From Nitrospirota bacterium (lineage in GTDB: Bacteria > Nitrospirota > Thermodesulfovibrionia > UBA6902 > DSMQ01): 36,735 bases of DNA. The notes under the pieces were generated by a model. The model was not told the DNA's origin. It was given only the letters and a program-made list of their open reading frames with translations, and did no database searches. The DNA lies in NCBI GenBank assembly GCA_016214355.1, contig JACROO010000119.1, forward strand, positions 1 to 36,735. The letters are read 5' to 3'. Positions within the stretch are counted from its first letter, which is position 1, and each line of letters starts with the position of its first letter. The position numbers and the translations under genes were made by a program. Shown piece by piece: positions 1,386 through 32,843 of the stretch.

Positions 1386-2690
1386 ATGCCAAAGATTAAC
1401 GTCAAGCCAGACATTTGCGACATCAAGGTGTCCGATATAAAGCCGGCGCCTTATAACCCAAGAGAGATTTCCGAGGAAGCGCTTTTAGGTTTAAGGCATT
1501 CTCTTGAGAAGTTTGGTTTGGTGGATCTGTTAGTTATAAATAAGCGCACCATGCATATCATTTCCGGGCATCAGCGCTATAAGATACTTCAGGCTGATAA
1601 CGCTGAGACCGTCACCGCAATCATGGTTGACCTTGATGAGGCCTCTGAAATGGCTATGAACGTGACTTTAAACTCCCAGCAGATTGTCGGCGCTTGGACA
1701 GCCGCTTTAATTCCGGTCCTTGAAAAACTCAGGAAAAATATGCCTGATGATTATCTTAATCTTCGGCTCAAAGAACTACGGGAGGAGGTTTCCGAGCTTG
1801 AGATAGAGAATCTGGGAACTGGCAAAACTCTGCCTGATGATATCCCCGAGCCTCCCGAAGAAGCAATTACCAAAAAAGGAGACCTCTGGCTATTAGGCGA
1901 GCATAAGCTTCTCTGCGGAGATTCTACCAAAGATGAAGATGTGGCGCGCCTGATGAATGGAGAAAAAGCCAGCCTCTTTGCTACGGATCCGCCGTACTGT
2001 GTTGACTATACCGGAGCCGGCAGGCCTACAGGAGGACATGACTGGTCAGATGTTTATCATGAGGTGGATATTCCCGATGCCAGGGAATTCATGAAAAAGT
2101 TTTATACAGTCGGCCTTAAGCATATCAAAGAAAACACGGCACTTTATCTTTGGCATGCTTCAAGGCGCAGATCCATGATTGAGGGAATTTGCGATGAACT
2201 GGGTATTCTGATTCATCAGCAGATTGTCTGGGTCAAGCCTTGCGCAATATTAACCTATTCGTTCTATTCATGGCGGCATGAGCCTTGCCTTTTAATGTGG
2301 GTCAAAGGTAAAAAACCTTTCTATAAACCAAAAGATAAGTCTATCGGTACGGTCTGGACAATTGATTTATTAAGAACCGGGGATCCGGCTAATCCCGAAT
2401 ATTACAGCGATATCTGGGAGTTGGACTGGGAAGGCAAGAAACGCAATCCGGGCATTTTGCATCCTACAGTAAAACCCACCGAAGTTTTCGCAATACCTAT
2501 GCGCGTGCATACCGCAGTAGGCGAGATTTGTTTTGAGCCTTTTTGCGGATCAGGCTCGCAGATCATCGCTGCCGAAAGATTAAACCGTAGATGCTATGCT
2601 TTAGAACTTGAGCCGATATTCTGCGATGTGACAGTGCGCAGATGGGAAGAGTTTACCGGCAAGAAAGCGCAACTGGAAGGAAGAGTATGA
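1386..2690 (+). CDS. ParB-like nuclease domain fused to a beta-class N6-adenine/N4-cytosine DNA methyltransferase
   Basis: SD AAAGGAG precedes ATG 1386. N terminus is ParB-N-like (IKPAPYNPREIS...ISGHQRY). Motif IV is DPPY (LFATDPPYCVDY), followed later by the SAM motif FEPFCGSGS; that order is typical of beta-class MTases. Confidence 0.85.
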   Translation: MPKINVKPDICDIKVSDIKPAPYNPREISEEALLGLRHSLEKFGLVDLLVINKRTMHIISGHQRYKILQADNAETVTAIMVDLDEASEMAMNVTLNSQQIVGAWTAALIPVLEKLRKNMPDDYLNLRLKELREEVSELEIENLGTGKTLPDDIPEPPEEAITKKGDLWLLGEHKLLCGDSTKDEDVARLMNGEKASLFATDPPYCVDYTGAGRPTGGHDWSDVYHEVDIPDAREFMKKFYTVGLKHIKENTALYLWHASRRRSMIEGICDELGILIHQQIVWVKPCAILTYSFYSWRHEPCLLMWVKGKKPFYKPKDKSIGTVWTIDLLRTGDPANPEYYSDIWELDWEGKKRNPGILHPTVKPTEVFAIPMRVHTAVGEICFEPFCGSGSQIIAAERLNRRCYALELEPIFCDVTVRRWEEFTGKKAQLEGRV

Positions 2691-3292
2691 CCGAGCAGAA
2701 ACAAAACCTTGCTGAGATCGCCCGCAAGAAACGCCACCTGCATTTGATTGAAAAGCTTCAAGGCGGAAAATCCCTTACCAAGCAGGAGATTACTGAGCTT
2801 GAAGAATTTGAGGCAGAGCCTTTAGCGCCTACTATTGTCAAGACCATGGAAGAGGTAGCCAAGGTTATGGATGTAACCTGCCGGACCGTGCAGCGCTGGA
2901 AGCAGGACGGTATGCCCTCAACCAAAGACGGCTTCTATGATTTAGAAGAAATAAAAAGCTGGCATGTGCTCAGGAACCAGAAATACAAAGACCAGGACGG
3001 CAAGGCTTATTGGGATGAGAAAATACAGCAGTATAAAGCAGAGCTGTTAAAGATAGAGCTTAAAAAAGCAACCAGCGAACTCATTCCTTTTAGCGAACAC
3101 ACCTCAATTCTTAAGAATCAAATCAGAGGAATCAAAATGGGATTCTTAAGGCTTCCGCACTATATCGCGCCCAAGCTATACCAGCAGGAACCAAAGCTCA
3201 TCTGCGAAATTTTAGATAATGAAATAAGGGCAATTATCAGTCAATTTGCCGGAGTGCCTTATGCCGATAAAGATCGCAAAGAAAGCGCTTGA
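2687..3292 (+). CDS. terminase small subunit (HTH DNA-binding)
   Basis: ATG 2687 overlaps the MTase stop (ATGA 2687-2690) and is preceded by GGAAGGAAGAG. HTH is MEEVAKVMDVTCRTVQRWKQDGMP. It sits immediately upstream of the large terminase. Confidence 0.65.
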   Translation: MTEQKQNLAEIARKKRHLHLIEKLQGGKSLTKQEITELEEFEAEPLAPTIVKTMEEVAKVMDVTCRTVQRWKQDGMPSTKDGFYDLEEIKSWHVLRNQKYKDQDGKAYWDEKIQQYKAELLKIELKKATSELIPFSEHTSILKNQIRGIKMGFLRLPHYIAPKLYQQEPKLICEILDNEIRAIISQFAGVPYADKDRKESA

Positions 3293-5126
3293 GACCATTA
3301 AGCCTTATGTTCGCAGTGAATGGGCCTTGCCTGATAAGGTAACGGTTAGCGTTTGGGCGGATAAGTATCGGCGCTTAGATACTAAAACTTCAGCTGAGCC
3401 AGGCCAGTGGTCAACAGCCAGGACTCCTTATTTAAAAGGCATTATGGATGCGTTCACTGATCCTTTTGTGGATGAGATAACTGTAATGTCAGCAAGCCAA
3501 GTCGGTAAGACTGAAGCTATGTTGAATATGCTCGGCTATATCATTGATCAGGATCCCGGGCCTACGCTTATGGTCCTGCCTAGAGCTGATGACGCCAAGA
3601 GTATTTCTTATAATAGGATTAAACCTATGATTGAGGGCTCAGCTATTTTAGAAAGATACATCCCGCAGAATTCAGATGATATAACTAAATTAGAATATCA
3701 CTTTGACCGGATGGTTCTTTATTTTGCCGGGTCAAACTCGCCAGCAGATTTAGCCTCAAGGCCTATAAGGTATTTATTTTTAGATGAGGTGGATAAATAC
3801 CCAAGGTTTTCCGGTCGCGAGGCAGACCCGATAAAGCTTGCGCAGGAGAGGCAGAAAACTTTCTGGAATAAAAAGACAGTGAAAGTTTCAACGCCTACTA
3901 CAAGAGAAGGGTATATCTTCAGGGAGTATGAAAAATCCGATCAAGAGCGTTTTTATGTACCCTGTCCGCACTGCGGGAAAATGCAGGTATTAATCTTTGG
4001 GCAAATTAAATGGCCGAAAGAAGAAGCGTCAGCTGAGCGGATTAAAAACGAACGCCTTGCCTGGTATGAATGTGTGCATTGTAATAAACGCATAGAAGAC
4101 AGTCAAAAACCCAGGATGATGCAAAGCGGCGAGTGGATTGCCGATAAAAAAGAACCGAATAAAAACAGGGGGTTTTGGATCAGCTCTTTATATTCGCCTT
4201 GGCTGTCCTTTAGCGACATCGCGGCAGAGTTTTTGAAATCAAAGGATTACATAGAATTACTGATGAACTTTGTCAACTCTTGGCTGGCTGAAGTCTGGGA
4301 GGAAAATATCGGGAAAACTAAGCCGGAAGAATTATTAACTTTAGTACTTCCAAATCCAAGAGGAATTGTGCCGGATGGAGCAAGGGTTTTGACTGCCGGA
4401 GTAGATGTGCAGAAGGATCATTTTTATTTAAGTATCCGCGGCTGGGGTCTGCATCAGGAATCATGGTTGATTTTGGCCACGAGAGTTGAGGAGTGGGATG
4501 ATGTTATAGAAATTCTATTTAAAACTTATTACCCCTCTGAGACCGCAGGTGTAGAACCTTTTGGAGTAAGGCTTACTTGTATTGATACCGGATATCGTAC
4601 TGATGAAGTTTATGAAGTGGCCCGGCTTTGGCGCGATATTGCGCGCCCTATTAAAGGGCAAAGCTACATAAGCGGGGTGCCTTTTAGGGTCTCAAGCATT
4701 GATAAGTATCCTGCCACAGGACAAACCATTCCTGGAGGTCTTTTGTTATGGCATATCGACACCAGTTATTTTAAAGATAAAATCAGCCGGTTGGTAAAAA
4801 ATACTAAACTTGATTCACCCGGAGGCTGGCATCTGCACAAGGATCCATCTGATGAATATTTGAAGCAGTTTTGCGGGGAGCATAAGATTATCATCCGGGA
4901 TAAAAAAACAGGGCGCGCCAGGGAAGAATGGCGCACGGTTTCTGTACATGCGCAGAGTCATTTCTTTGATACGGAGTGTTACTCAATAGCAGCGGCAGAG
5001 ATGATTCGGGTATTTGCTATGCAGGAGGACGGCAGAAGAATTTATCCTAAACAGGATACTGAAAGCCTGCAGCACGGTATTACTAAGAACTGGCTTCCCA
5101 GGCGTCCGAATTGGATAAAAAGATAA
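3261..5126 (+). CDS. terminase large subunit, GpA (lambda A) family
   Basis: Length is about 620 aa. Walker A-like MSASQVGKTE, Walker B RYLFLDEVD, and the GpA-typical Zn motif CPHCG...CVHCN are present. ATG 3261 has GGAG 6 nt upstream. Confidence 0.9.
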   Translation: MPIKIAKKALETIKPYVRSEWALPDKVTVSVWADKYRRLDTKTSAEPGQWSTARTPYLKGIMDAFTDPFVDEITVMSASQVGKTEAMLNMLGYIIDQDPGPTLMVLPRADDAKSISYNRIKPMIEGSAILERYIPQNSDDITKLEYHFDRMVLYFAGSNSPADLASRPIRYLFLDEVDKYPRFSGREADPIKLAQERQKTFWNKKTVKVSTPTTREGYIFREYEKSDQERFYVPCPHCGKMQVLIFGQIKWPKEEASAERIKNERLAWYECVHCNKRIEDSQKPRMMQSGEWIADKKEPNKNRGFWISSLYSPWLSFSDIAAEFLKSKDYIELLMNFVNSWLAEVWEENIGKTKPEELLTLVLPNPRGIVPDGARVLTAGVDVQKDHFYLSIRGWGLHQESWLILATRVEEWDDVIEILFKTYYPSETAGVEPFGVRLTCIDTGYRTDEVYEVARLWRDIARPIKGQSYISGVPFRVSSIDKYPATGQTIPGGLLLWHIDTSYFKDKISRLVKNTKLDSPGGWHLHKDPSDEYLKQFCGEHKIIIRDKKTGRAREEWRTVSVHAQSHFFDTECYSIAAAEMIRVFAMQEDGRRIYPKQDTESLQHGITKNWLPRRPNWIKR

Positions 5127-5368
5127 TGACCAAATGGATAAACGCAAAAGGCTGGCTGAAAGGATACGTCTCAGAGAAAAAGTCTGGTATAAACAATGAC
5201 GTACTAAACAAAGAAACAGAAACAAAGGCGACTGTTGTGCGTTTAATCTTAAGATGCCCTAGATGCAGGTCATTAAAGTTAAAATGCTACGGCGCAGACC
5301 GGCCGGTTCTATATTACAAATGCAATGAGTGCGGCTGGAAATTTAAAGTCCTGGAAGTAGACAGGTAA
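5126..5368 (+). CDS. small zinc-ribbon protein (CxxC-17-CxxC)
   Basis: ATG 5126 overlaps the terminase stop (TAATG). Contains CPRCRSLKLKCYGADRPVLYYKCNECG. Function unknown. Confidence 0.6.
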   Translation: MTKWINAKGWLKGYVSEKKSGINNDVLNKETETKATVVRLILRCPRCRSLKLKCYGADRPVLYYKCNECGWKFKVLEVDR

Positions 5369-5399
5369 AAACTATTTTCAGCCACGCTGAACCGTTTCC

Positions 5400-5427
5400 T
5401 TGACTCAGGATATACAAATGATATAAA
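5400..5427 (+). promoter_or_regulatory. sigma70-like promoter candidate
   Basis: TTGACT (5400-5405), a 16-nt spacer, then TATAAA (5422-5427). Located in the 197-nt gap after the Zn-ribbon gene. Confidence 0.45.
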
Positions 5428-5483
5428 GTTTAATTGAACAGGCAGTTAGAAATAATTTAGGGGGGACGCTTCCTAAATTAATG

Positions 5484-5533
5484 AAGCGGCAGTTAAGGTG
5501 CCTTAACCATCTTACTGCCGCTTTCTTTTTTTT
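5484..5533 (+). terminator. rho-independent terminator, preceded by a second hairpin at 5453-5480
   Basis: AAGCGGCAGT (5484-5493) pairs perfectly with ACTGCCGCTT (5514-5523), followed by a T-run to 5533. Upstream, TAATTTAGG (5453-61) pairs with CCTAAATTA (5472-80). Confidence 0.75.
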
Positions 5534-5565
5534 AGCGAAGGAATTATTGGAAGAAAGGGTTAGCA

Positions 5566-5997
5566 ATGATTTTAGAAATTTTAAAAGCATTAAAAGATGC
5601 AGTAGGGCTCAAAAATATTGCGGGAACGCAAATCAATCCCGCTAAGGAAGACGGTAATTTAGCTCTTATTAAAGCAAGAACCGATAATTTAGATATTGCT
5701 TTATCAGAGATAAAAACCGGAACAGACAGAATATCTGCAAGTCCATCTACCGAAACCACCCTTAATGCTCTATTGGTAGTTCTCCAACATTTAATCAATT
5801 CTCCTTTAGGCAGGTTAGCTATCGACAGCGCTGGAAGATTAAGAATCCTAATTGATGCGGAGGGAACAGCTACTCCTGTTTCTCAATCAGGAGTTTGGAA
5901 TCTTGGTAATTTCCCGGTTGATCAGAGATGGGAAATGATACAGCGGGCGAATATAGAATATAACGAATGTCAAAGAAGCAAATTTACTTTCGCTTAA
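5566..5997 (+). CDS. hypothetical protein, 143 aa
   Basis: ORF with AAAGGG upstream. No domain recognised. Shares the IKA(R/K)TDNL motif with the 6982 ORF. Confidence 0.6.
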   Translation: MILEILKALKDAVGLKNIAGTQINPAKEDGNLALIKARTDNLDIALSEIKTGTDRISASPSTETTLNALLVVLQHLINSPLGRLAIDSAGRLRILIDAEGTATPVSQSGVWNLGNFPVDQRWEMIQRANIEYNECQRSKFTFA

Positions 5998-6025
5998 TCA
6001 GAATATGTATTCAGAGGAATAAAAT

Positions 6026-6973
6026 ATGCCGTTTAATCATAATTTAAAGCAAGGAATTGATTTACCGATATGGCAATGGCTGAGATTCTTACCTACAGCA
6101 AATGCCGCCGGCGCTTGTCAAGTCAACGATAAAAGAGGGGCTGACAGGTATATTTATTTTCTTTTTAGCATCTCTTCTTTTTGGCGGTATGACACGATAA
6201 CCGACGCCTGGATACAGTTAGCCTCTCCAGGTGCTTTAGGCGGATCAGGAACCTGGGGCGCAGGAACTTGCATGGTATTTGATCCTTCGCAAGGATCGGC
6301 CGGAAGGATCTGGCTTTTAAACGGATATACAACGCAATGCGGATTTGGATATTACGATATTGCCGCTAATACCTGGACTTCGCGGTCTGTAACTAATCTA
6401 CCGGCAGTCTGGGGGACTGACGGGGCGATGAGTCATACCTGCGCCAGCTACAATGCTGCAGGGAACGACGATTATATTTACCTGATAGGCAATAGTGCGA
6501 CACCCTTTTACAGATATTCGATTTCCGGCAATTCATGGTCAGCCATGGCAAATGCCTTAACCGGAGCGGCCGGCGCCGGCTGCGGAATCCATTGGATACA
6601 AGGCACTGACCCCGATAAGCTTTTTGTAATAAGAGGCGGCGCTAATTCAGCGGTATACCGGTATTCAATAGGAACGCCGGGGTGGACAACATTAACCTAT
6701 AATCCCAATTCGGAAACTTTCACGACCGGCACAGTATCTGCTTATGACTCTACCAATGGCAGAATTTGGATACAAAAAGACGCTACGCATAGGCTTTATT
6801 ATTACGATTTAGCAACGGATAAAATGATGAATGCCGGCGCAATCCCTTATACATCAGGCACGGCAGTAGCAGGCGACAGATTAAGCTATGTTAAAACAGC
6901 TGACGGAGCGCAGTATCTTTACTACACAAGGGCATCAGGCACGGAACTCTGGAGAACTTTAATTTTTTACTAA
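6026..6973 (+). CDS. six-bladed Kelch-type beta-propeller protein
   Basis: Six repeats of the pattern hydrophobic strand ... aromatic-(R/Y)-Y-(D/S) ... x-W: YIYFLF..FWRYDTITDAW; RIWLLNG..GYYDIAANTW; YIYLIGN..FYRYSISGNSW; LFVIRGG..VYRYSIGTPGW; RIWIQKD..LYYYDLATDKM; YLYYTRASGTELW. Confidence 0.7.
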   Translation: MPFNHNLKQGIDLPIWQWLRFLPTANAAGACQVNDKRGADRYIYFLFSISSFWRYDTITDAWIQLASPGALGGSGTWGAGTCMVFDPSQGSAGRIWLLNGYTTQCGFGYYDIAANTWTSRSVTNLPAVWGTDGAMSHTCASYNAAGNDDYIYLIGNSATPFYRYSISGNSWSAMANALTGAAGAGCGIHWIQGTDPDKLFVIRGGANSAVYRYSIGTPGWTTLTYNPNSETFTTGTVSAYDSTNGRIWIQKDATHRLYYYDLATDKMMNAGAIPYTSGTAVAGDRLSYVKTADGAQYLYYTRASGTELWRTLIFY

Positions 6974-6981
6974 GGACAGGG

Positions 6982-7440
6982 ATGGACACGCTAAGAATAC
7001 AGAACGGACAGACTGAGCGGATCAGGGCGTTTATTTTTGATAATGACGGCAATGCCGTTGCCGGGCTAAGCAGTGTTTTCTTAAAAATATACAGAAAGTC
7101 GGACGGGCAATTCTATACAGGTTCAGCGTGGCAATTCGGATCCGCAGCAATTGTTATGGTTGAAGAGGATGTAGTAAATAAACCCGGCTGGTATTATTAC
7201 GATTTTGATACGTCGGGGTTAAGTGATGATATTTATTATATGGAAGTCAGCTGTGTTTCAGCGATGGCAGGTTATCTGGCAGCCGGAGAATTAAAAGTGG
7301 GCGGCTATGTAGACAATATAGACGTAGCAGCATCAACGATTAAAGCCAAGACAGATAATTTACCGGCTGATCCTGCAAGCGAAACCGGTGTATTGGCAAA
7401 AGAGAGCGGAATGCCTACACCCTATGATGTAGGTCCTTAA
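6982..7440 (+). CDS. hypothetical protein, 152 aa (beta-rich; virion-associated role is a guess)
   Basis: ORF 8 nt after the propeller gene. No domain recognised. The C-terminal IKAKTDNLPADPA motif repeats the 5566 ORF motif. Confidence 0.6.
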   Translation: MDTLRIQNGQTERIRAFIFDNDGNAVAGLSSVFLKIYRKSDGQFYTGSAWQFGSAAIVMVEEDVVNKPGWYYYDFDTSGLSDDIYYMEVSCVSAMAGYLAAGELKVGGYVDNIDVAASTIKAKTDNLPADPASETGVLAKESGMPTPYDVGP

Positions 7441-7455
7441 AATTAGAGGTTATTT

Positions 7456-7836
7456 ATGTCGGTAGAAAGAGAAAATGCGGTAATTAATAATCAGATAATC
7501 TTGAGGAATAATTTTAGATTTTCCCAGACCTCCGATTTGTTTGATCCTTATGCTGTATCAAAGGTAGAGATTTTAGACAGCGATGGGTCTGGCGTTCTTC
7601 AAACTTTTACCGGTATTGAAATAATTAAGGACAGCACGGGCAAATACCATGTAGTTGCAGCCGCAATAACTATCGCAAAAACTATATATGATAAGTGGTA
7701 TTTTACTCCTGCTCCGGGCGCTGTAGAAATTACAAAACCGTTAATAATGCTATTGCGGCTAGGTTATCCGGAGGCGCAGTTGCTGCTTATAGCATTAACG
7801 GACGCAACATTCAGTATATTCCGCTTAGTGAGTTGA
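7456..7836 (+). CDS. hypothetical protein; only the first ~93 codons look like real coding sequence and may continue into the gpW frame
   Basis: Good SD (AGAGG, 7 nt) before ATG 7456. After ...AVEITK (about 7737) the frame reads like out-of-frame noise (LIMLLRLGYPEAQLLLIALTDATFSIFRLVS) while the -1 frame becomes gpW-like. Confidence 0.5.
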   Translation: MSVERENAVINNQIILRNNFRFSQTSDLFDPYAVSKVEILDSDGSGVLQTFTGIEIIKDSTGKYHVVAAAITIAKTIYDKWYFTPAPGAVEITKPLIMLLRLGYPEAQLLLIALTDATFSIFRLVS

Positions 7837-7922
7837 AGGAGATGCGTAAAGAATTACAGGCTCAAGTTTCAGCTGGAAAAGGCGGGGCAAGAACATTTGT
7901 ATCTTTTAAGAATCCGCAATGA
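7695..7922 (+). CDS. head-to-tail joining protein, lambda gpW-like
   Basis: NNAIAARLSGGAVAAYSINGRNIQYIPLSELKEMRKELQAQV...GGARTFVSF parallels lambda gpW (...[38 protein letters not shown]...GPAGFYV). The stop overlaps the portal ATG (ATGA 7919-7922), as in the lambda W-B order. GTG 7695 has no SD, so the true N terminus is uncertain. Confidence 0.7.
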   Translation: MVFYSCSGRCRNYKTVNNAIAARLSGGAVAAYSINGRNIQYIPLSELKEMRKELQAQVSAGKGGARTFVSFKNPQ

Positions 7923-9520
7923 AAAATAAAGACACTAACAAAATTACTTTTTCGGAACGCCTCGACAGCTTGATCGGTTTTTTCTCGCCAAGATTATCTT
8001 TGCAGCGAAAACTCTACCGTCTGGCCTTAAGGCAGTTCTCAAGCTACCGCGGAGCAGACAGATCCCGTCTGCGCGATTCATGGATCCCGGGAAGAGGATC
8101 TGCTGATTCGGATTTATTATTTGAGCTTCCGACTTTGCGCGAAAGAAGCCGTGACCTAAACCGCAACGACGCGCACGCATCCGGGATTACTTCAACTATT
8201 GTTACTAATGTTATCGGCACAGGCATTAGGCCTCAAAGCCGTATTGACCGAGACGGTTTAAATATTACTGAAGAAGCAGCAGATCTCTTTCAGAAAAAAG
8301 CAGAACGCGCCTGGCAGAAATGGATTCCTTTTGCGGATGCCGGAGAGCGTATGGATTTCTACGAAATCCAGCAGTTAGTTGAGCGGCAGATTCTAGAAAA
8401 CGGCGAAGTTTTAATTATTCCTCTGATGGTCGATACTCCCAGCAGACCTTACATGCTCGCTCTAGAAATTGTCGAGGCAGACAGATTAGCCACACCTTAC
8501 GATTTAATGCAAAACAAAAATATAAGAAGCGGTGTTGAGATTGGAGAGCGCGGCGAGCCGGTTGCTTATTACATTAGGAAGTCTCATCCCGGAGATGTCT
8601 ATTTTAACTACAGGGCGCTTGATTCTAGTTACTACATCCGCTATCCGGCTAAGAATGAATTAGGTAGACCGAATGTCCTGCATCTTTACTGGCTGAAACG
8701 CCCGGGTCAGACCCGAGGCGAGCCGTTCTTTGCGCCAATCTTAACTTACTTTAAAGATTTGTCAGATTATATGGAAGCTGAACTTGTGGCAGCGCGCGTG
8801 GCTGCCTGTTTTGCTGCCTTTGTAAAAAAGACAGACCCGATAAATGCTGCTTTTGGCAGGGCAGATTCAACTAATGCTGCAAATCAGAAGATAGAAGCCT
8901 TGGAGCCGGGAATGATTGAATACTTGGCACCAGGGGAAGAGATTTCGCAGTTGAGTCCGAACCGTCCTGGAGGAACGTTTGAGCCGTTTGTAGAGAGGAT
9001 CCTTAGGGCAATATCTGCAGGCCTGAATCTTCCTTATGAAGTGGTGGCAAAAGATTTCAGCAAATCCAGTTATTCCAGCGCCCGGGCTGCGCTCTTAGAA
9101 GCACGCAGGTTCTTTAAAGCGCGTCAGGAATGGCTGTCAAAAAGATTATGCCAGCCGGTATACGAGATGTTCTTGGAAGAAGCGTATTTATTAGGGGAGC
9201 TGCCGATACAAAACTTTTATGATAACCGGCTTGACTTAACCCGTGCCCGCTGGATTGCTCCCGGCTGGGGCTGGGTGGATCCCACAAAAGAAGTTGAGGC
9301 CTCTCGCAGTTCAGTAGACGGCAATCTTTCCACTTTGGCTGATGAGTGTGCAGCACTCGGCAAAGACTGGGAAGAGGTCATGGAGCAGAAGGCGCGCGAG
9401 GAAAAGAAGCGCAAAGAATTGGGTTTAGAAGACAAGCCGTTAGTTAAGAAAACCGATCCAAATAAGGAGAAAGACGAAAGTGGCAAAACCGTTCAAGAAG
9501 AAGCAGGGGTTAAGCAATAA
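7919..9520 (+). CDS. portal protein, lambda gpB family
   Basis: 533 aa, as I recall also the length of lambda gpB. Blocks recalled from gpB: DSWIPGRGSADSDLL...RERSRDLNRNDAHASG; GQTRGEPFFAPIL; SYSSARAALLEARRFFKARQEWLSKRLCQPVYEMFLEEA; WIAPGWGWVDPTKEVEA. Confidence 0.9.
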   Translation: MKNKDTNKITFSERLDSLIGFFSPRLSLQRKLYRLALRQFSSYRGADRSRLRDSWIPGRGSADSDLLFELPTLRERSRDLNRNDAHASGITSTIVTNVIGTGIRPQSRIDRDGLNITEEAADLFQKKAERAWQKWIPFADAGERMDFYEIQQLVERQILENGEVLIIPLMVDTPSRPYMLALEIVEADRLATPYDLMQNKNIRSGVEIGERGEPVAYYIRKSHPGDVYFNYRALDSSYYIRYPAKNELGRPNVLHLYWLKRPGQTRGEPFFAPILTYFKDLSDYMEAELVAARVAACFAAFVKKTDPINAAFGRADSTNAANQKIEALEPGMIEYLAPGEEISQLSPNRPGGTFEPFVERILRAISAGLNLPYEVVAKDFSKSSYSSARAALLEARRFFKARQEWLSKRLCQPVYEMFLEEAYLLGELPIQNFYDNRLDLTRARWIAPGWGWVDPTKEVEASRSSVDGNLSTLADECAALGKDWEEVMEQKAREEKKRKELGLEDKPLVKKTDPNKEKDESGKTVQEEAGVKQ

Positions 9521-9650
9521 GGAAGAGGGTCTTAAGAATAAACGCTGCCTGATTCTTACTTCAAATGATTTTCCGATTAAGGTTACAGTCGTGCCAAAGG
9601 GCATGTTAGTTAAGCCTCAAGAGTTAATTATTGATATACAGCAAAAATAA
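9480..9650 (+). CDS. possible small ORF (56 aa) filling the portal-protease gap
   Basis: GTG 9480 lies 10 nt after AAGGAG (9464-69). Product is MAKPFKKKQGLSNKEEGLKNKRCLILTSNDFPIKVTVVPKGMLVKPQELIIDIQQK. It is below the ORF-track cutoff. The gap is otherwise unexplained in a tightly packed operon. Confidence 0.3.
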   Translation: MAKPFKKKQGLSNKEEGLKNKRCLILTSNDFPIKVTVVPKGMLVKPQELIIDIQQK

Positions 9651-9665
9651 GAAAAGTAGCGTTGT

Positions 9666-10754
9666 ATGCAGGATGCATTAAAACATAAAAACACTTTTCG
9701 GGCAGATGTAGCAAGAGGCATCCGTGACGGTAAAGGCGGCATTGATAAGAAAACCGGCATCATCTATGGTTTTGCAGTGATCACCAAGGGCGAAGCGCGC
9801 GGCCACGGCTTGGAGATTGACGAGACTACTTTGGATCAGGCAGTTGAGCTGGGAGCAAAGTCAAGTATCGGCCTAAAATCACGTTTCGGTCATCCCAATA
9901 TGAGCAATTCTGCAGTCGGCACATTCTTAGGCAGGGCAAAGAATTTCAGAAAAGAAATCGGAGTAGTGCGCGCCGACCTTTATTTTGACAAGACTGCCTA
10001 CAATACTCCAAACGGAGATTTAGCAGGCTATGTTTTGGATTTAGCCGAAAGCGACCCCGATGCCTTCGGCTCATCCATCGTCTTTGACGGAGAGCCCGAA
10101 TACCGGCTCAATGAAGACGGCACGCGCAAAAAGGATCCGGCTACCGGCAAGGATCTTTTGCCTTTAGCGCGTATTACAAAGCTATGGGCAGTAGATGTGG
10201 TGGATGACCCTGCAGCCAACAACGGAATGTTCGGCGCATTCTTTTCTGAGACGGTTAAGCCTTCGGCTGAGATGACTGTCTTTTTAGATAAATTTTTATC
10301 AAATCCGGAAGCAGTAGAAAAGACAATTGCGTTTTTAGAGCGTTATTCACTAACCAAGGAGGAGGTGACAAAAATGGAATTAAAGGATTTGACTTTGGAA
10401 ATACTTAAAAAAGAAAGGTCTGACCTTACAGCCGGTTTAAGCGGCGAAGGGTTAAATCAGGAAAGAGAGCGCATTATCAGCCTCTTAGATACTGCCAAGG
10501 CCTTCCCGGGAACAGAGGCGCTTGTTTATGAGGCAGCAAAAAACGGCGATACCTCGGCAGTTCTCTTAGAAAAACTAAAGCAGGTGCGCTTGGGGGATTT
10601 AAAGACAAAATCCCCGGCTTCAGCAGGACCGGGGCAGGATCCGGCTCAAGGCGCAGCTAAGACTCACCTTGAAAGGGCAAGGGAATATCAGAAGCAGTTC
10701 GGTGGCACAATCACCGAGGCATTAAGGGTAACCGCAGAAAAAAGGAAACAGTAA
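9666..10754 (+). CDS. prohead protease (HK97/S78-like) with C-terminal scaffold-like coiled coil
   Basis: Sits between portal and capsid genes. Has RFGHPNMSNSAVGTFLG and AFGSSIVFDGE blocks resembling the His and Ser regions of prohead serine proteases. C-terminal charged helices follow (LKDLTLEILKKERSDL...ERERIISLLD). Confidence 0.6.
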   Translation: MQDALKHKNTFRADVARGIRDGKGGIDKKTGIIYGFAVITKGEARGHGLEIDETTLDQAVELGAKSSIGLKSRFGHPNMSNSAVGTFLGRAKNFRKEIGVVRADLYFDKTAYNTPNGDLAGYVLDLAESDPDAFGSSIVFDGEPEYRLNEDGTRKKDPATGKDLLPLARITKLWAVDVVDDPAANNGMFGAFFSETVKPSAEMTVFLDKFLSNPEAVEKTIAFLERYSLTKEEVTKMELKDLTLEILKKERSDLTAGLSGEGLNQERERIISLLDTAKAFPGTEALVYEAAKNGDTSAVLLEKLKQVRLGDLKTKSPASAGPGQDPAQGAAKTHLERAREYQKQFGGTITEALRVTAEKRKQ

Positions 10755-23847: not shown

Positions 23848-23940
23848 AGGGTCTGAGGAGAATAACTTTCCTCGGAGGTGAAATTCATTGATGGTCGGGC
23901 CGCCATCTTGCAGTTTTGCTGCAGGATGGCGTTTTACTTT
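23848..23940 (+). promoter_or_regulatory. conserved leader element, copy 1 (SD hairpin + invariant 21-mer + terminator)
   Basis: AGGGTC. Hairpin 23853-59/23869-75 overlaps GGAGG (23874-78). 21-mer TTGATGGTCGGGCCGCCATCT is at 23888-23908. A 12-bp stem (23902-13/23919-30) is followed by GTTTTACTTT. The same architecture is found at 29453-29543. Confidence 0.6.
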
Positions 23941-23977
23941 AAGAGTAACCACACAATCACGATGCGTATACTATTAG
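23891..23977 (+). CDS. candidate leader peptide MVGPPSCSFAAGWRFTLRVTTQSRCVYY
   Basis: ATG lies 12 nt after GGAGG. The first six codons are identical in nucleotides to the copy-2 mini-ORF. The ORF runs through the terminator and ends 16 nt inside the response-regulator gene. Confidence 0.35.
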   Translation: MVGPPSCSFAAGWRFTLRVTTQSRCVYY

Positions 23978-24630
23978 TAGAAGACGAAAAAAATATGGCA
24001 AGTTTTATCAAGCGCGGGCTTGAAGAGGAGCGCTATGTAGTCGATGTTGCCTCTAACGGGGAGAAGGCGCTTTTCTTGGCGGAAACAAATCCCTACGATT
24101 TGATAATTCTTGATGTAATGCTTCCGGATACTACCGGTCTTGTTATTTGTAAGGATTTGCGGGCTAAGAAAATAGACACTTTCATTCTCATGCTTACTGC
24201 TCGCGATGACGTTAAAGATAAAGTATTGGGCCTTGAGACTGGAGCGGACGACTATTTGGCTAAACCGTTTGATTTCGATGAGCTTCTAGCGCGGATTGCC
24301 GCGCTTTTACGCAGGAAACGCCTAGATAAAAGCCCTATTCTTAAGGTCGCGGATCTTGAATTAAACCAACTTACCCATAAAATCATACGGGCTAAAAAAG
24401 AGATAGTCTTGACCGGTAAGGAATATAGCTTACTTGAGTATCTCATGCTCCATGCCAATCAAGTAGTAACGAGGACTGAGATATCGGAACACGTTTGGAA
24501 CGAGGATTTTGACAGCTTGACCAATGTCATAGATGTATTTATAAACCGGTTGCGTAACAAGATTGACCAAGGTTTTAAGAAAAAGCTTATTCATTCTCTT
24601 CGCGGTACGGGCTACATACTTAAGGAATAA
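23962..24630 (+). CDS. OmpR/PhoB-family response regulator
   Basis: The receiver domain starts at MRILLVEDEK, with the ...DLIILDVMLPD phospho-acceptor region. C-terminal winged helix: LTGKEYSLLEYLM...VIDVFINRLRNKI...IHSLRGTGY. Confidence 0.9.
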   Translation: MRILLVEDEKNMASFIKRGLEEERYVVDVASNGEKALFLAETNPYDLIILDVMLPDTTGLVICKDLRAKKIDTFILMLTARDDVKDKVLGLETGADDYLAKPFDFDELLARIAALLRRKRLDKSPILKVADLELNQLTHKIIRAKKEIVLTGKEYSLLEYLMLHANQVVTRTEISEHVWNEDFDSLTNVIDVFINRLRNKIDQGFKKKLIHSLRGTGYILKE

Positions 24631-24632
24631 CG

Positions 24633-26087
24633 ATGCAAAAATCTTTTCGCCGAAAAGTTATGACCGGATTTTGGGTAATGGTATTCCTGTGCGCATTTAC
24701 GGTCCTATTTGCTTTTATAACTACGCGTAACATGCAGAGGGTTTTCTTGAGTACCATGAGAGATAATGTTGCGGCCCTTAAGGCAGCAGAGGAGTTGGAA
24801 CTGGCTTTGCTTAGCCAAAAAGGCTTTTTATCAAATTATTTTTTAGACGGCAATCCAACCTGGATAAAAAAACTCGAAGAAAAGAAAACTATCTTCTTGG
24901 ATTGGCTTAACAAGGCGTCAGATGCCGCTTTGACTCCGCCGGAAAAAGACATCATTGAAGACATTAAACGTCTTTACAAAATATATGAGACCGAGCGCTA
25001 TAAGGCTAAGCATCTTTATGATTCGGGGAATGTTCGGGGCGCTAAAAACGTACTTCTTAAAGACATGTGGGAGGCTTTCGAGGCCCTATATCAAAAGTGC
25101 GAGGATTTTATTCGTATTAACGAATCGATTATTGACAAATCAGAGGTTTCTTTACAAAGAAAAATCATAGGTATGATGGTCTTGATCACGGTTCCTGCGT
25201 TGGTTATAATTGCATTAGTCGGCTCCATGTTCTTTTTGTTAACGAGAAGAATTCTCGCTTCCGTTAAGGACATTACAATAACAACTCGTAATATTAATCT
25301 TAAAAGCCTAAGCGGGCGGGTGAGCACCGCAAATTTGGAAACGGAAATGGAGTATCTGGCTAAATCAATCAACATGATGCTTGAACGTCTGGAACGGTCT
25401 TTTGAATATATTAAGGAATTCAGCTCAAGTATCGGCCATGAATTAAAGAGTCCGCTTGCGATTATTAAAGGAGAGTCCGAGGTTGCATTACGCAAAGAAA
25501 GACAAGTTGAGGATTATCGAAAAGCCTTGAGCGTCAATATCGAAGAAGCAAATAGAATGATCCGCATTGTCGAAGATTTGGTTTTTTTGGCAAAACTCGA
25601 TTACAATCCGGATAATATCAAGAAAGAAGTTTTTGATTTTATTCCGTTTTTTGCGGATATACAGAAACGCGCTCAAACGCTTGTTGCGCAAAAACAAATA
25701 GAGCTTACAGCCACGATTCCCGAAGTCGCCGTTACTTTAGAGGGTAACAAATTGCATTTGAGCCGCCTGTTTTTTAATCTTATTCAGAACGCCGTTAAAT
25801 TTACGTCTTCAGGAGGAAGAATCAATCTATCCGTTCATCCGGAAAACGGCGTATTAAAGGTTTCTATATCGGATACGGGCCTAGGAATCAGCGAAGAAGA
25901 TTTACCCAGGATATTTCAGCGGTTTTTCCAAAAAGGAAAATCCGAATCGGAAAGCAGCGACAGTATCGGCCTGGGTCTAAGCATTGCCAAATCAATTGCA
26001 AAGTTTCATAGTGGCGACATTGAGGTAAAAAGCAAGCCCGGAGAAGGCTCAACTTTTTCCGTAATCCTGCCTATTTTTCACCCCTGA
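24633..26087 (+). CDS. membrane sensor histidine kinase (2 TM, HAMP, HisKA, HATPase_c)
   Basis: Starts 2 nt after the regulator stop. H-box is FSSSIGHELKSPLAII, N-box NLIQNAVKFT, G-boxes DTGLGI / GLGLSIAK. Confidence 0.9.
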   Translation: MQKSFRRKVMTGFWVMVFLCAFTVLFAFITTRNMQRVFLSTMRDNVAALKAAEELELALLSQKGFLSNYFLDGNPTWIKKLEEKKTIFLDWLNKASDAALTPPEKDIIEDIKRLYKIYETERYKAKHLYDSGNVRGAKNVLLKDMWEAFEALYQKCEDFIRINESIIDKSEVSLQRKIIGMMVLITVPALVIIALVGSMFFLLTRRILASVKDITITTRNINLKSLSGRVSTANLETEMEYLAKSINMMLERLERSFEYIKEFSSSIGHELKSPLAIIKGESEVALRKERQVEDYRKALSVNIEEANRMIRIVEDLVFLAKLDYNPDNIKKEVFDFIPFFADIQKRAQTLVAQKQIELTATIPEVAVTLEGNKLHLSRLFFNLIQNAVKFTSSGGRINLSVHPENGVLKVSISDTGLGISEEDLPRIFQRFFQKGKSESESSDSIGLGLSIAKSIAKFHSGDIEVKSKPGEGSTFSVILPIFHP

Positions 26088-30605: not shown

Positions 30606-32843
30606 ATGAGAAGAGTATTTTTATTTATCCTACCCATTCTAATTATTGTTTCCGCGGCCTTTACGCTTTTTGGCTTCTTTCAGGTGCGCTTTGAAGAAGA
30701 GAAGCTTATTGATGATTTGAAAAGAAAAGCCAAAAGCGTTGCCGAAAGCATGGAATTGTCGGTACAGCATGTGCTTTCAGCCAATGATTTAAAAAATGCC
30801 AATTATCTTGCCGAGAAATTTGAGACTAGGGAAAGATTGCAGGGTTGTGTTATTTACGATAAAGACGGCAACATAATAGCGCTTACCAAAAGATTCGGTG
30901 ATTGGAAAGAAAAAGACAAGCCGTATATTAAAGATATTATAGCGAATAAGACTCCGCGGGGAGAGTTGGAGAAATTCAAAGATTATCAGGTTTATAGTTA
31001 TATTCTCCCTATAGTTGATGATGCGGGGCAGTTTTTGGGAATGGTTGAGGTTATACATGATACTTCCTATGTCTTCGCGAGATTGACTGAACTTTGGAAG
31101 CGCATTAGCTCAACGTTAATAATCTTAGTAGTAGTAATTTTTATTATCTCCATTTTTCTTCACAGGCAGATTTTTGCTCTGCCAGTACAGCGTTTAACAG
31201 ATTGGTTTAAGCATTTCCAGAAAGGCGAAACTGACGAAGCGCATCCAATAAGGGAAAAAGGAGATCTGGGTAAGCTTGCCAGCGAAGTCGAGCAGGTAGC
31301 ATTATCTTTAAGGGTTGCCCGAAGGACGATTTCAGATGAAGCGCAGGCACGCATGGAAAAAGAAGAAATATGGACAGAGGCAAAATTAAAGGATCTAGTC
31401 CATGCGAAGTTAGGAGAGAATGCCTTATTTATAGTGTCCAACCGTGAGCCTTATATGCATACAATAGATGAGGCAACTGGTTTAGAACAATGCATCAGGC
31501 CGGCAAGCGGCGTTGTTACTGCGATTCACCCGGTTCTATGCGCTTGTGGCGGCACATGGGTTGCTCATGGTGCTGGCAATGCGGATAAGAAATTCGTAAA
31601 TTCAAAGGATAAGCTCGGTGTTCCGCCTAAAGATATACGTTATATTCTTAAAAGAGTCTGGCTGGATAAAGAAGAAGAGGATGGCTACTATTACGGATTT
31701 TCCAACGAGGGCTTATGGCCGTTATGCCACAATACGCATACGAGGCCGGTTTTTCGGGAGTTGGACTGGCAGGCTTACAAAAAGGTGAATCAGAAGTTTG
31801 CGGATTCCGTTTTGGAGGAATTACCCGTCAAACATCCTTTTGTATTTATTCAAGATTATCATTTCACTCTGCTCGGGAAGATGATTAAAGAAAGGCGCCC
31901 CGATGCTACAATTGCGCTTTTTTGGCATATTCCCTGGCCTACACCGGAGGCATTCTCCATCTGCCCTTACCGCAAAGAGATTCTTGAAGGCATGCTTGGG
32001 TGCGATTTGATAGGTTTTCATGTCCAGAATCATTGCAACAATTTTCTTGATACAGCCAACAGACTCCTTGAATCAAGGGTTGATATAGAAAAATTCAGCA
32101 TTGTCCGTTCTGAAAAGGAAACTTTTGTTAGAGCATTTCCGATTAGCGTTAACGGGCATTTTAACCAAGCTGCGAAGGACGCGGACATAAAACGAGAGAT
32201 AGATAAAATTAAAAAAGAGTTTGACTTGGAAGGTAAAATTATAGGTTTGGGGGTTGACAGGATTGACTATACAAAGGGTATCGTTGAGAGAGTGCTTGCT
32301 ATAGACAGGTTTTTAGAGAAATACCCTCAATACAAGAAAAAATTCGTTTTTATTCAGCTTGCCGCTCCAAGCCGTGTGCATATAAAGCGTTATCATGACC
32401 TTATGGCAGAAATTGACGAATTAATCGAGAAGAAAAACTGGAAGTATTCTGATTCTGGCTGGAAGCCGATTGTTTATCTTAAAAGGCATTTTTCTTTGGA
32501 TGAAATCGAGCCTTTCTATAAAATGGCTGATCTTTGTATTGTAAGCTCGCTTCATGACGGCATGAACCTTGTGGCCAAAGAATATGTGGCAGCCAGAAAA
32601 GATTTGTCAGGGAGCCTTATATTAAGCCAATTTACCGGCGCAGCAAGAGAGCTTGTCGATGCTATTCAGGTAAACCCGTATTCAATAGAGGAGTTTGCCG
32701 ATAGCATACAATTAGTTCTTCAGATGCCACAGGATGAGAAAACAAAACGCATGGAAAAAATGCGGAAAGTTATTTCGGAGAATAATGTTTATCGCTGGGC
32801 AGGAAATATCATCACTGAGCTAGCGGCACTAAAGAAAGTATAA
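30606..32843 (+). CDS. otsA: membrane sensor-HAMP domain fused to trehalose-6-phosphate synthase (GT20)
   Basis: TM1 is at residues 4-25. An extracytoplasmic region of about 140 aa has Cache/PDC-like strands (GCVIYDKDGNIIALT; YSYILPIVDDAGQFLGMVEVIHD). TM2 (LIILVVVIFIISIFL) and a HAMP-like linker follow. GT20 motifs: FIVSNREPY, YYYGFSNEGLWPLCH, FIQDYHFTLL, FWHIPWP, DLIGFH, SLHDGMNLVAKEY. Confidence 0.85.
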   Translation: MRRVFLFILPILIIVSAAFTLFGFFQVRFEEEKLIDDLKRKAKSVAESMELSVQHVLSANDLKNANYLAEKFETRERLQGCVIYDKDGNIIALTKRFGDWKEKDKPYIKDIIANKTPRGELEKFKDYQVYSYILPIVDDAGQFLGMVEVIHDTSYVFARLTELWKRISSTLIILVVVIFIISIFLHRQIFALPVQRLTDWFKHFQKGETDEAHPIREKGDLGKLASEVEQVALSLRVARRTISDEAQARMEKEEIWTEAKLKDLVHAKLGENALFIVSNREPYMHTIDEATGLEQCIRPASGVVTAIHPVLCACGGTWVAHGAGNADKKFVNSKDKLGVPPKDIRYILKRVWLDKEEEDGYYYGFSNEGLWPLCHNTHTRPVFRELDWQAYKKVNQKFADSVLEELPVKHPFVFIQDYHFTLLGKMIKERRPDATIALFWHIPWPTPEAFSICPYRKEILEGMLGCDLIGFHVQNHCNNFLDTANRLLESRVDIEKFSIVRSEKETFVRAFPISVNGHFNQAAKDADIKREIDKIKKEFDLEGKIIGLGVDRIDYTKGIVERVLAIDRFLEKYPQYKKKFVFIQLAAPSRVHIKRYHDLMAEIDELIEKKNWKYSDSGWKPIVYLKRHFSLDEIEPFYKMADLCIVSSLHDGMNLVAKEYVAARKDLSGSLILSQFTGAARELVDAIQVNPYSIEEFADSIQLVLQMPQDEKTKRMEKMRKVISENNVYRWAGNIITELAALKKV

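Follow-up and report, generated by a model that had tools for sequence, protein, structure and literature searches.

Why does a phage with a lambda-type head module carry additional genes between its terminase and its head-tail adaptor? The question is raised by contig JACROO010000119.1 of assembly GCA_016214355.1, a stretch of 36,735 nucleotides (nt) that was analysed over its full length and is hereinafter designated the window. The window is an entire 36.7-kb contig of a 1.85-Mb metagenome-assembled genome (MAG; 85% complete). It holds a temperate siphovirus with TerS, TerL and portal of lambda type, whose host belongs to Candidatus Omnitrophota. Specifically, a near-identical prophage lies inside a 1.19-Mb contig labelled Candidatus Omnitrophota bacterium, and therefore the host is assigned to Omnitrophota and the phage is regarded as temperate.

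In phage lambda the order of head genes is Nu1-A-W-B, and W, a protein of 68 amino acids (aa) that has no N-terminal extension, lies directly after A. The window resembles lambda in that its terminase is gpA-type, its gpW-like domain matches head-tail adaptor PHROGs, and a lambda-family portal comes next. Unlike in lambda, three extra genes and a Zn-ribbon gene stand between terminase and gpW. An earlier reading of the sequence (the original prediction) had pointed out that these genes are foreign to the lambda order, which is confirmed here. ORF calling (ORF, open reading frame) and sequence reading likewise confirm the gap of 197 nt and the ORFs of 143, 315, and 152 aa that it had reported. 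Comparison with related loci indicates that the block is the local content of a swappable slot, which is tied to the N-terminal domain (N-domain) of an extended gpW-type adaptor. The features of the region are as follows.

2642–3292: TerS, identified by ORF calling
3246–5126, + strand: TerL, gpA-type (Pfam PF05876, PF20454)
5111–5368, + strand: Zn-ribbon ORF, 85 aa, overlapping the TerL stop; its Zn-ribbon Pfam matches are weak
5369–5565, + strand: non-coding leader, 197 nt, the gap 5' of ORF1
5566–5997, + strand: ORF1, 143 aa, predicted helical protein, partner of the Kelch gene
6026–6973, + strand: ORF2, 315 aa, predicted Kelch-type β-propeller
6982–7440, + strand: ORF3, 152 aa, predicted immunoglobulin (Ig)-like domain, fibre repeat, and C-terminal peptide
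6982–7305, + strand: predicted Ig-like β-sandwich of ORF3, aa 1–108
7411–7437, + strand: C-terminal peptide of ORF3, MPTPYDVGP
7456–7836, + strand: ORF of 126 aa, the first 93 codons of which precede the gpW-like frame
7456–7737, + strand: adaptor N-domain, ~94 aa kept, frame 1, assigned by identity to intact adaptors
7734–7740, + strand: junction of an 82-nt deletion, from DNA alignments to L002, L008, and L011
7695–7922, + strand: open gpW-like frame; the head-tail joining domain itself spans 7737–7922, frame 0
7919–9520, + strand: portal, lambda-family (PF05136, 1.8e-110)

A variable slot tied to the adaptor

Genes of 143, 315, and 152 aa are present in identical order in the close relatives L002/L007, L008, L018, L048, L051, and L052 (loci used for comparison are designated by L numbers). 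Outside the deletion, DNA of the window is 91–98% identical to L008 and 85–94% identical to L002. In more distant relatives, whose TerL and portal are 50–57% identical to those of the window, TerL, the Zn-ribbon gene, the extended adaptor, and the portal are all kept, and the slot holds other genes: proteins of 196, 104, 476 (CBM96), and 671 aa in L004, of 220 and 618 aa in L005, and of 414 and 676 aa in L010. The cassette genes of relatives carry CBM96, Laminin_G_3, and DUF5123 domains. A one-off insertion does not agree with this distribution, because comparison of the interval between terL and portal finds the block kept in all close relatives and a variable cassette in the same slot across the wider clade. 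The Zn-ribbon ORF does not vary in this way. Its homologues lie directly after TerL in L002, L008, L018, L004, and L005 (phmmer, 1e-12 to 1e-55), and it is part of the conserved backbone, forming the left border of the slot.

The right side of the slot is defined by its last gene, which keeps the Ig-like N-terminal domain of a large fibre family, fibre repeats, and the C-terminal peptide ...MPTPY(D/N)VGP. In 27 of 29 distinct loci the gene 5' of the adaptor N-domain ends with ...(E)MPTPY(D/N)VGP or a close variant, an ending of the type Y(D/N)(V/I)GP being counted as the peptide. The distance from this ending to the N-domain gene is 9–16 nt in nearly all loci and 228 nt in L005. Of the two loci that depart from this pattern, one carries an HNH endonuclease gene at the junction, and the other has the N-domain that diverges most (43% identity). 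At synonymous sites the peptide's codons vary freely, so the peptide itself is under selection at the amino-acid level. No other such C-terminus was found among the 3121 ORFs of the MAG, and this uniqueness rules out the peptide as a sorting signal of the host.

In L059, an HNH-endonuclease-like gene with a CxxCN..K motif (3374–3988) lies exactly at the fibre-adaptor junction. This gene ends with ...VIGP, as though the last codons of the fibre gene were retained.

The adaptor N-domain is also found on other head modules, where it is fused to gp6-type or other adaptors to give proteins of 233–308 aa (Phage_connect_1, phrog_442). L004 has a lambda-type backbone and L013 a gp6-type adaptor. They share two cassette genes (55–63% identity), the fibre gene, and the N-domain (76%), whereas their backbone genes are 24–30% identical or unmatched. 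The cassette and the N-domain have thus travelled between backbones as a pair. The lineage of the window fills the slot with the ORF1/ORF2 pair and with an ORF3 that has no signal peptide.

In three relatives, genes resembling glycosyltransferases, epimerases, and deacetylases by sequence motifs only adjoin the cassette or the adaptor (L013 66–4632; L015 10797–11801; L016 10228–11241). They suggest that fibres or the host surface are modified with glycans.

The cassette genes and their leader

The original prediction counted four inserted ORFs. Three of them are real genes, and the fourth, of 93 codons, is not a separate gene, since in relatives it is the N-domain of the adaptor (see below). 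In pairwise comparisons among four members of the lineage, the ratio of nonsynonymous to synonymous substitution rates (dN/dS) is 0.12–0.21 for ORF1, 0.06–0.14 for ORF2, and 0.12–0.28 for ORF3. For comparison, the same four members give 0.03–0.05 for TerL and portal and 0.04–0.07 for the adaptor N-domain. We conclude that ORF1–ORF3 are real genes under purifying selection. Synonymous divergence (dS) of the cassette is lower than that of TerL and portal, which hinted at a recent transfer of the cassette within the lineage; nucleotide identity is uniform across the region, however, and such a transfer is not claimed.

ORF3 is, judged by its sequence relatives, a minimal member of an unnamed phage fibre family with an N-terminal domain of the METxRIQNG type. 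Its relatives form 935 clusters (E ≤ 1e-3), and aa 1–120 of ORF3 align with residues 1–120 of proteins ~140–1270 aa long. These proteins go on with repeats like SSRSSHSAADVW..TRTLT. A segment at aa 104–145 of ORF3 (IKAKTDNLPADPASE..., the KTDNLP unit) occurs in up to 33 copies in long fibre proteins; ORF3 has one copy of the KTDNLP-type unit (aa ~104–145), and ORF1 also has one. In the AlphaFold2 (AF2) model of ORF3, the predicted local distance difference test (pLDDT) score is 88–92 at aa 11–90 and below 50 at aa 112–121 and 128–152. The β-sandwich at aa 1–108 is thus predicted with confidence, and the C-terminal 40 residues have low confidence. A Foldseek search of BFVD with this model returned neighbours that include Microbacterium phage proteins annotated as 'tail fiber' and 'minor tail', and a fold search of the PDB returned generic Ig-like matches only. 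A profile search of solved structures with ORF3 gave nothing useful.

ORF3-type genes are also found within the head module of L028 and L029. In L028 (3208–10876), an unrelated phage with other TerL and portal families, the TerL-portal block encodes proteins of 61, 113, 118, 717, 237 (ORF3-like), 57, and 101 aa. Therefore, fibre-type insertions between TerL and portal are not confined to this clade. Two candidate relationships were rejected. Ig-like proteins of ~100 aa that follow ORF3-like genes elsewhere are not homologues of the adaptor N-domain (hhalign probability 1%), and gene 003 of roseophage R4C was ruled out by comparison as a relative of ORF3.

ORF2 is, by sequence, a putative Kelch-type β-propeller of a large phage family. 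It passes the Pfam cut-offs for Kelch_1 (24.4 bits; cut-off 20.1) and Kelch_3 (23.6 bits; cut-off 22) and matches phrog_12615 (1.8e-12). The family comprises 965 detected homologues with a nearly fixed length of ~315 aa, and 16 of 34 sampled members match Kelch_1, the best at 2e-9. A search of solved structures found no solved relative of ORF2; there are weak profile matches alone, to the propellers of KLHL12 and KLHL20 (E 0.02–0.04).

The genomic context of ORF2 homologues was read in five unrelated genomes (L021, L022, L023, L045, and L046). In L022 and L045, two or three small genes separate the Kelch gene from the tape measure gene upstream, and the gene after it encodes a protein of 1826 or 1319 aa. 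In L021, a Deinococcus prophage, the gene after it encodes a protein of 1310 aa that has a fibre chaperone domain (Peptidase_S74). L023 has two tandem copies of the Kelch gene (315 and 280 aa; L023 7001–8852) 3' of the capsid gene, and L046 has the gene in another phage-like region. The gene directly 5' of the Kelch homologue matches the hidden Markov model of the ORF1 family in L023 (1e-28), L046 (2e-7), and L021 (1e-6), and in L022 and L045 the gene at this position equals ORF1 in size and has a similar C-terminal pattern. Because ORF1 homologues precede Kelch genes in unrelated phages, ORF1 and ORF2 constitute a conserved two-gene module of structural regions, mostly tail regions, of phages. 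This pair is an unannotated phage module with ~1000 Kelch relatives in public data.

ORF1 has a fibre-type repeat (IKARTDNL...) and a conserved C-terminal module (...GRLAID-SAGRLRI...QSGxW...DQRWEMIQRANIEYNECQRSKFTFA). Its 37 homologues vary at the N-terminus and are strongly conserved in the C-terminal 70 aa, which end with ...QRANIEYNECQRSKFTF. The AF2 model of ORF1 (pLDDT 66; predicted TM-score 0.25) contains helices at 29–54, 60–78, and 118–139 and a hairpin at 84–94. The model is too uncertain for a fold search, and a profile search of solved structures with ORF1 gave nothing useful. A low-confidence, elongated helical model would be as expected for the subunit of an oligomeric stalk.

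Upstream of ORF1, the leader contains a promoter-like sequence (TTGACT-18-TAAAGT, 5400–5429), a hairpin at ~5445–5480, and a long hairpin at 5486–5521 followed by a T-run to 5533. Its RNA is predicted to fold at −39.4 kcal/mol (z = −4.9), and none of 200 shuffled sequences was as stable. Consensus scans of the region are at chance level, with 8 promoters found and 6.9 expected, and 5 terminators found and 3.1 expected. The proposal that the block has promoter-like and terminator signals of its own therefore holds for a structured leader, but not for consensus matches beyond chance. The leader is kept in three relatives (L008, L018, and L002). In L002, the relative that is an Omnitrophota prophage, an additional gene for a 236-aa protein (L002 5106–5816), which matches no Pfam or PADLOC family, lies between the Zn-ribbon gene and ORF1, and the leader is located 3' of it. 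As the leader stays with ORF1 past the additional gene, it belongs to ORF1, not to the Zn-ribbon gene. It could be a late leader controlled by antitermination or a small RNA.

The disrupted adaptor gene

The sequence evidence indicates that the "fourth ORF" of 93 codons is the front half of an extended gpW-type adaptor. When 94 codons of the ORF at 7456–7836 are joined to the gpW frame, the product is 81% identical to proteins of 178–185 aa over 99–100% of its own length. In relatives, an N-domain (1–102), an Ala/Gly-rich linker of ~27 residues, and a gpW domain form one ORF, and the N-domain of the window is 94–95% identical to the first 94 aa of intact 182-aa adaptors of L002 and L008. The gpW-like frame (7695–7922) matches phrog_5774 'head-tail joining' (6e-7) and phrog_118 (1e-4), and its end at 7922 overlaps the portal start at 7919.

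Compared with L002, L008, and L011, the window lacks 82 nt at 7737, so that the frame is shifted and the gpW domain lies in the −1 frame. With ...NTCIVWETAAAAGEVALATDPAALLTA... the deletion took out residues that are almost invariant (Cys and Trp of ...NTCVVWE...), together with the beginning of the first gpW helix. The adaptor is intact as one ORF in L002, L008, L011, L048, L051, and L052 and is split in the window only. No intact allele was found elsewhere in the MAG. A programmed −1 frameshift at A-AAA-C (7734–7738) is unlikely, because the heptamer is non-canonical and a shift would not restore the deleted residues. The split copy may belong to a defective prophage or to a minority variant, or it may result from mis-assembly. 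In annotation, the "fourth ORF" and the gpW fragment should become one disrupted adaptor gene.

The two-part architecture of the adaptor is already known from roseophage vB_DshS-R4C. The R4C adaptor is the head-to-tail joining protein vBDshSR4C_004 (PDB 8GTD; RcGTA-type adaptor nomenclature). From the N-terminus, its 178 aa form an Ig-like "attachment domain" (1–106), which is outside the neck and in contact with the capsid, then a helical tube domain, and finally a C-terminal hook (PMC10276861). A profile of the intact adaptors matches one solved structure, chain M of 8GTD, with E 1e-3, and hhalign aligns 107–171 with 105–168 at a probability of 89%. The two adaptors are of similar length (182 and 178 aa) and have in common, as judged by length and position, an N-terminal domain of ~105 aa, a linker, a gpW-like tube domain, and a C-terminal hook. 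In both phages the gene lies directly 5' of the portal gene, and the C-terminal halves align at matching coordinates. Other than that, the two systems differ. The N-domains have no sequence similarity detectable by hhalign, and the gene in the window is broken. Between TerL and adaptor, R4C has one unrelated 149-aa gene, annotated as single-stranded DNA-binding protein (L047 = MK882925, 2810–3259), and no fibre cassette. No partner with a conserved C-terminal peptide has been described for R4C.

The fourth ORF also limits the original statement that none of the inserted proteins resembles a head-assembly protein. ORF1–ORF3 do match no decoration, scaffold, protease, or head-assembly family in Pfam and PHROG, whereas the fourth ORF belongs to an extended gpW adaptor of R4C type.

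Possible roles of the cassette and its phage context

Of the roles originally suggested for the block, fibres or host interaction is the one favoured by the evidence. Specifically, we give an even chance to the reading that the cassette serves host recognition as an accessory module bound to the virion, probably through docking on the adaptor. According to this reading, ORF1–ORF3 would be made late together with the head genes, by transcription from or through the leader, and their products would be associated with the virion. The flexible C-terminal peptide of ORF3 would dock on the exposed adaptor N-domain to give short neck or collar fibres, and the Kelch propeller and ORF1 would form a glycan- or surface-binding head that aids adsorption. 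An ORF3-adaptor fusion (L008) was considered as a proxy for docking and was dropped, as MAFFT split distant ORF3 relatives across both domains and the 6-residue linker favours a trivial hairpin.

Several points weigh against the docked host-recognition module. Genetic linkage is the sole basis for placing the ORF1–ORF3 proteins on the virion or at the neck. The N-domain of R4C is described as contacting the capsid, not as holding fibres, and the N-domain here cannot be related to it by sequence. The occurrence of ORF1 and Kelch genes in tail-tip regions elsewhere may point to the tail rather than the neck. Finally, an n-region, a hydrophobic core, and an AXA-type site stand at the start of 18 of the 21 cassette proteins of distant relatives, the peptide-bearing fibre among them. 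Such Sec-type-like starts occur in the cassettes of L004, L005, L010, L013, L015, L016, L017, L019, L055, L057, and L062, and the predicted "mature" start of the relatives' fibre aligns with residue 1 of ORF3. Export by Sec fits an envelope location better than virion assembly in the cytoplasm and is hard to reconcile with the docked module. Within the lineage of the window, none of 10 cassette proteins, ORF1–ORF3 included, has a signal-peptide-like start. Proteins of a fibre family and proteins with lectin domains that have Sec-like starts inside structural operons are an oddity for a tailed phage.

These starts are the strongest argument for a rather unlikely alternative, in which the products are exported cell-surface cargo (adhesins, receptor masking, or glycan binding), acting as moron-like conversion or release factors outside the virion, and the slot beside the adaptor is merely favoured for recombination. 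The lectin-type domains of relatives agree with such cargo, as do the glycosyltransferase-like genes beside cassette or adaptor in L013, L015, and L016, the promoter-like site and structured leader in the window, and the lower GC content at 5200–6000 (0.36–0.40). However, the lineage of the window has no protein with such an N-terminus, and the families of ORF1, ORF2, and the ORF3 N-domain sit in structural regions of phages without signal peptides there. The peptide is selected at the protein level, tracks the N-domain across unrelated backbones, and, being unique in the MAG, is no host sorting tag. In addition, only 15 nt, with a Shine-Dalgarno site, separate the end of ORF3 from the adaptor gene, and there is no terminator 3' of ORF3, because of which a classic insulated moron expressed from the prophage, one of the roles suggested originally, is unlikely for this lineage. 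A further reading, likewise unlikely, takes the locus as a portable neck-anchoring system, in which the Ig-like domain fused to unrelated adaptors brings a fibre or lectin cassette and the last protein plugs in via ...MPTPYDVGP. The cassette proteins, apparently exported by Sec in most members, would then either decorate virions after leaving the cytoplasm, in the periplasm or during lysis, or represent a secreted adhesin set of Omnitrophota phages that is evolutionarily coupled to a virion protein. To our knowledge, neither has been described for tailed phages.

The products could also be tail-tip accessory proteins out of place, with ORF1 and Kelch, and perhaps ORF3, on the baseplate or central fibre, and with no structural meaning of the position beside the adaptor. 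The pair lies after the tape measure and before the protein of 1319–1826 aa in L022 and L045 and precedes the 1310-aa Peptidase_S74 fibre in L021, and the BFVD neighbours of ORF3 include 'minor tail' proteins. We consider this quite improbable, as it does not account for why the tail-bearing gene almost always accompanies the adaptor N-domain, nor for the transfer of cassette and N-domain as one set onto adaptors of different kinds, and as an ORF3-type gene lies in the head module of L028 and L029. It is very unlikely that the genes are assembly, decoration, or scaffolding helpers that have no role in host recognition. Their location in the head module and the capsid contact of the R4C-type N-domain fit such helpers, but decoration, scaffold, and protease families were not matched, cement-type and protease genes are already present downstream in relatives, and the hypervariable lectin- and fibre-like content is typical of host-range genes, not of assembly factors. 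Defence or anti-defence cargo is extremely improbable. Nothing more than the accessory and variable nature of the genes speaks for it, and the fibre- and propeller-like families with structural neighbours speak against it. Consistent with this, PADLOC (E ≤ 0.01) gave no defence match for ORF1–ORF3, the Zn-ribbon ORF, or the cassette proteins of relatives, so the anti-defence cargo suggested originally finds no support.

Known systems offer partial parallels to the block. Lambda-type morons such as lom and bor lie in or beside the late genes of lambda. The block resembles them as a set of accessory genes that lies within a late structural operon and has signals like those of promoters and terminators, and the products of relatives look exported; it differs in that it is tightly joined to the adaptor gene and is followed by no terminator, in its structural families, and in the lack of signal peptides in the lineage. 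Propeller platform domains occur in phage receptor-binding proteins such as Gp45 of Staphylococcus aureus phage phi11. The likeness is a propeller in a host-recognition protein, probably with glycan binding, whereas ORF2 is a stand-alone Kelch protein of 315 aa with a separate small helical partner. Neck or collar fibres are known as the fibritin whiskers of T4 and the collar-whisker structures of lactococcal phages. Neck fibres are described for Anabaena myophage A-1(L) as well (PMC10966104). The fibres proposed here would likewise be anchored at the neck and assist adsorption, but they have no sequence or fold relation to those of T4, A-1(L), or lactococcal phages, and their anchoring is deduced. 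A C-terminal peptide on an adaptor N-domain is not known as the anchor in any of these three systems.

Phages that infect Omnitrophota have hardly been described. The peptide, the adaptor domain, and the variable cassette form a testable unit that resembles a host-range module, located where head and tail join rather than at the tail tip. If real, the Sec-like starts on fibre-family proteins would bear on where and when particles of tailed phages can gain accessory proteins.

The rest of the contig encodes a siphovirus with a Mu-gpT-like or phrog_1005 major head protein, a tape measure, and tail assembly proteins. Besides the cassette, the sole other fibre encoded is the central fibre, which is J-type (1360 aa). 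The window has no close counterpart among cultured phages: a DNA search of the GenBank phage collection with the window found no match, nor did a search of the same collection with the adaptor protein; the Kelch protein has a partial match alone, to Pseudanabaena phage Pam2.

Two further stretches of the window stand apart from the slot. 3' of the tail genes, 23878–26087 and 30606–32843 encode large proteins of PHROGs of unknown function (phrog_731, 857, 22613). One relative of these proteins is annotated as a kinase, and they may be accessory or defence-type cargo. The backbone stretch least conserved with respect to L002 is the junction of portal and protease (9500–9800), with 57% identity and an indel of 132 columns; the gene after the portal encodes 412 aa in L002 and 362 aa in the window.

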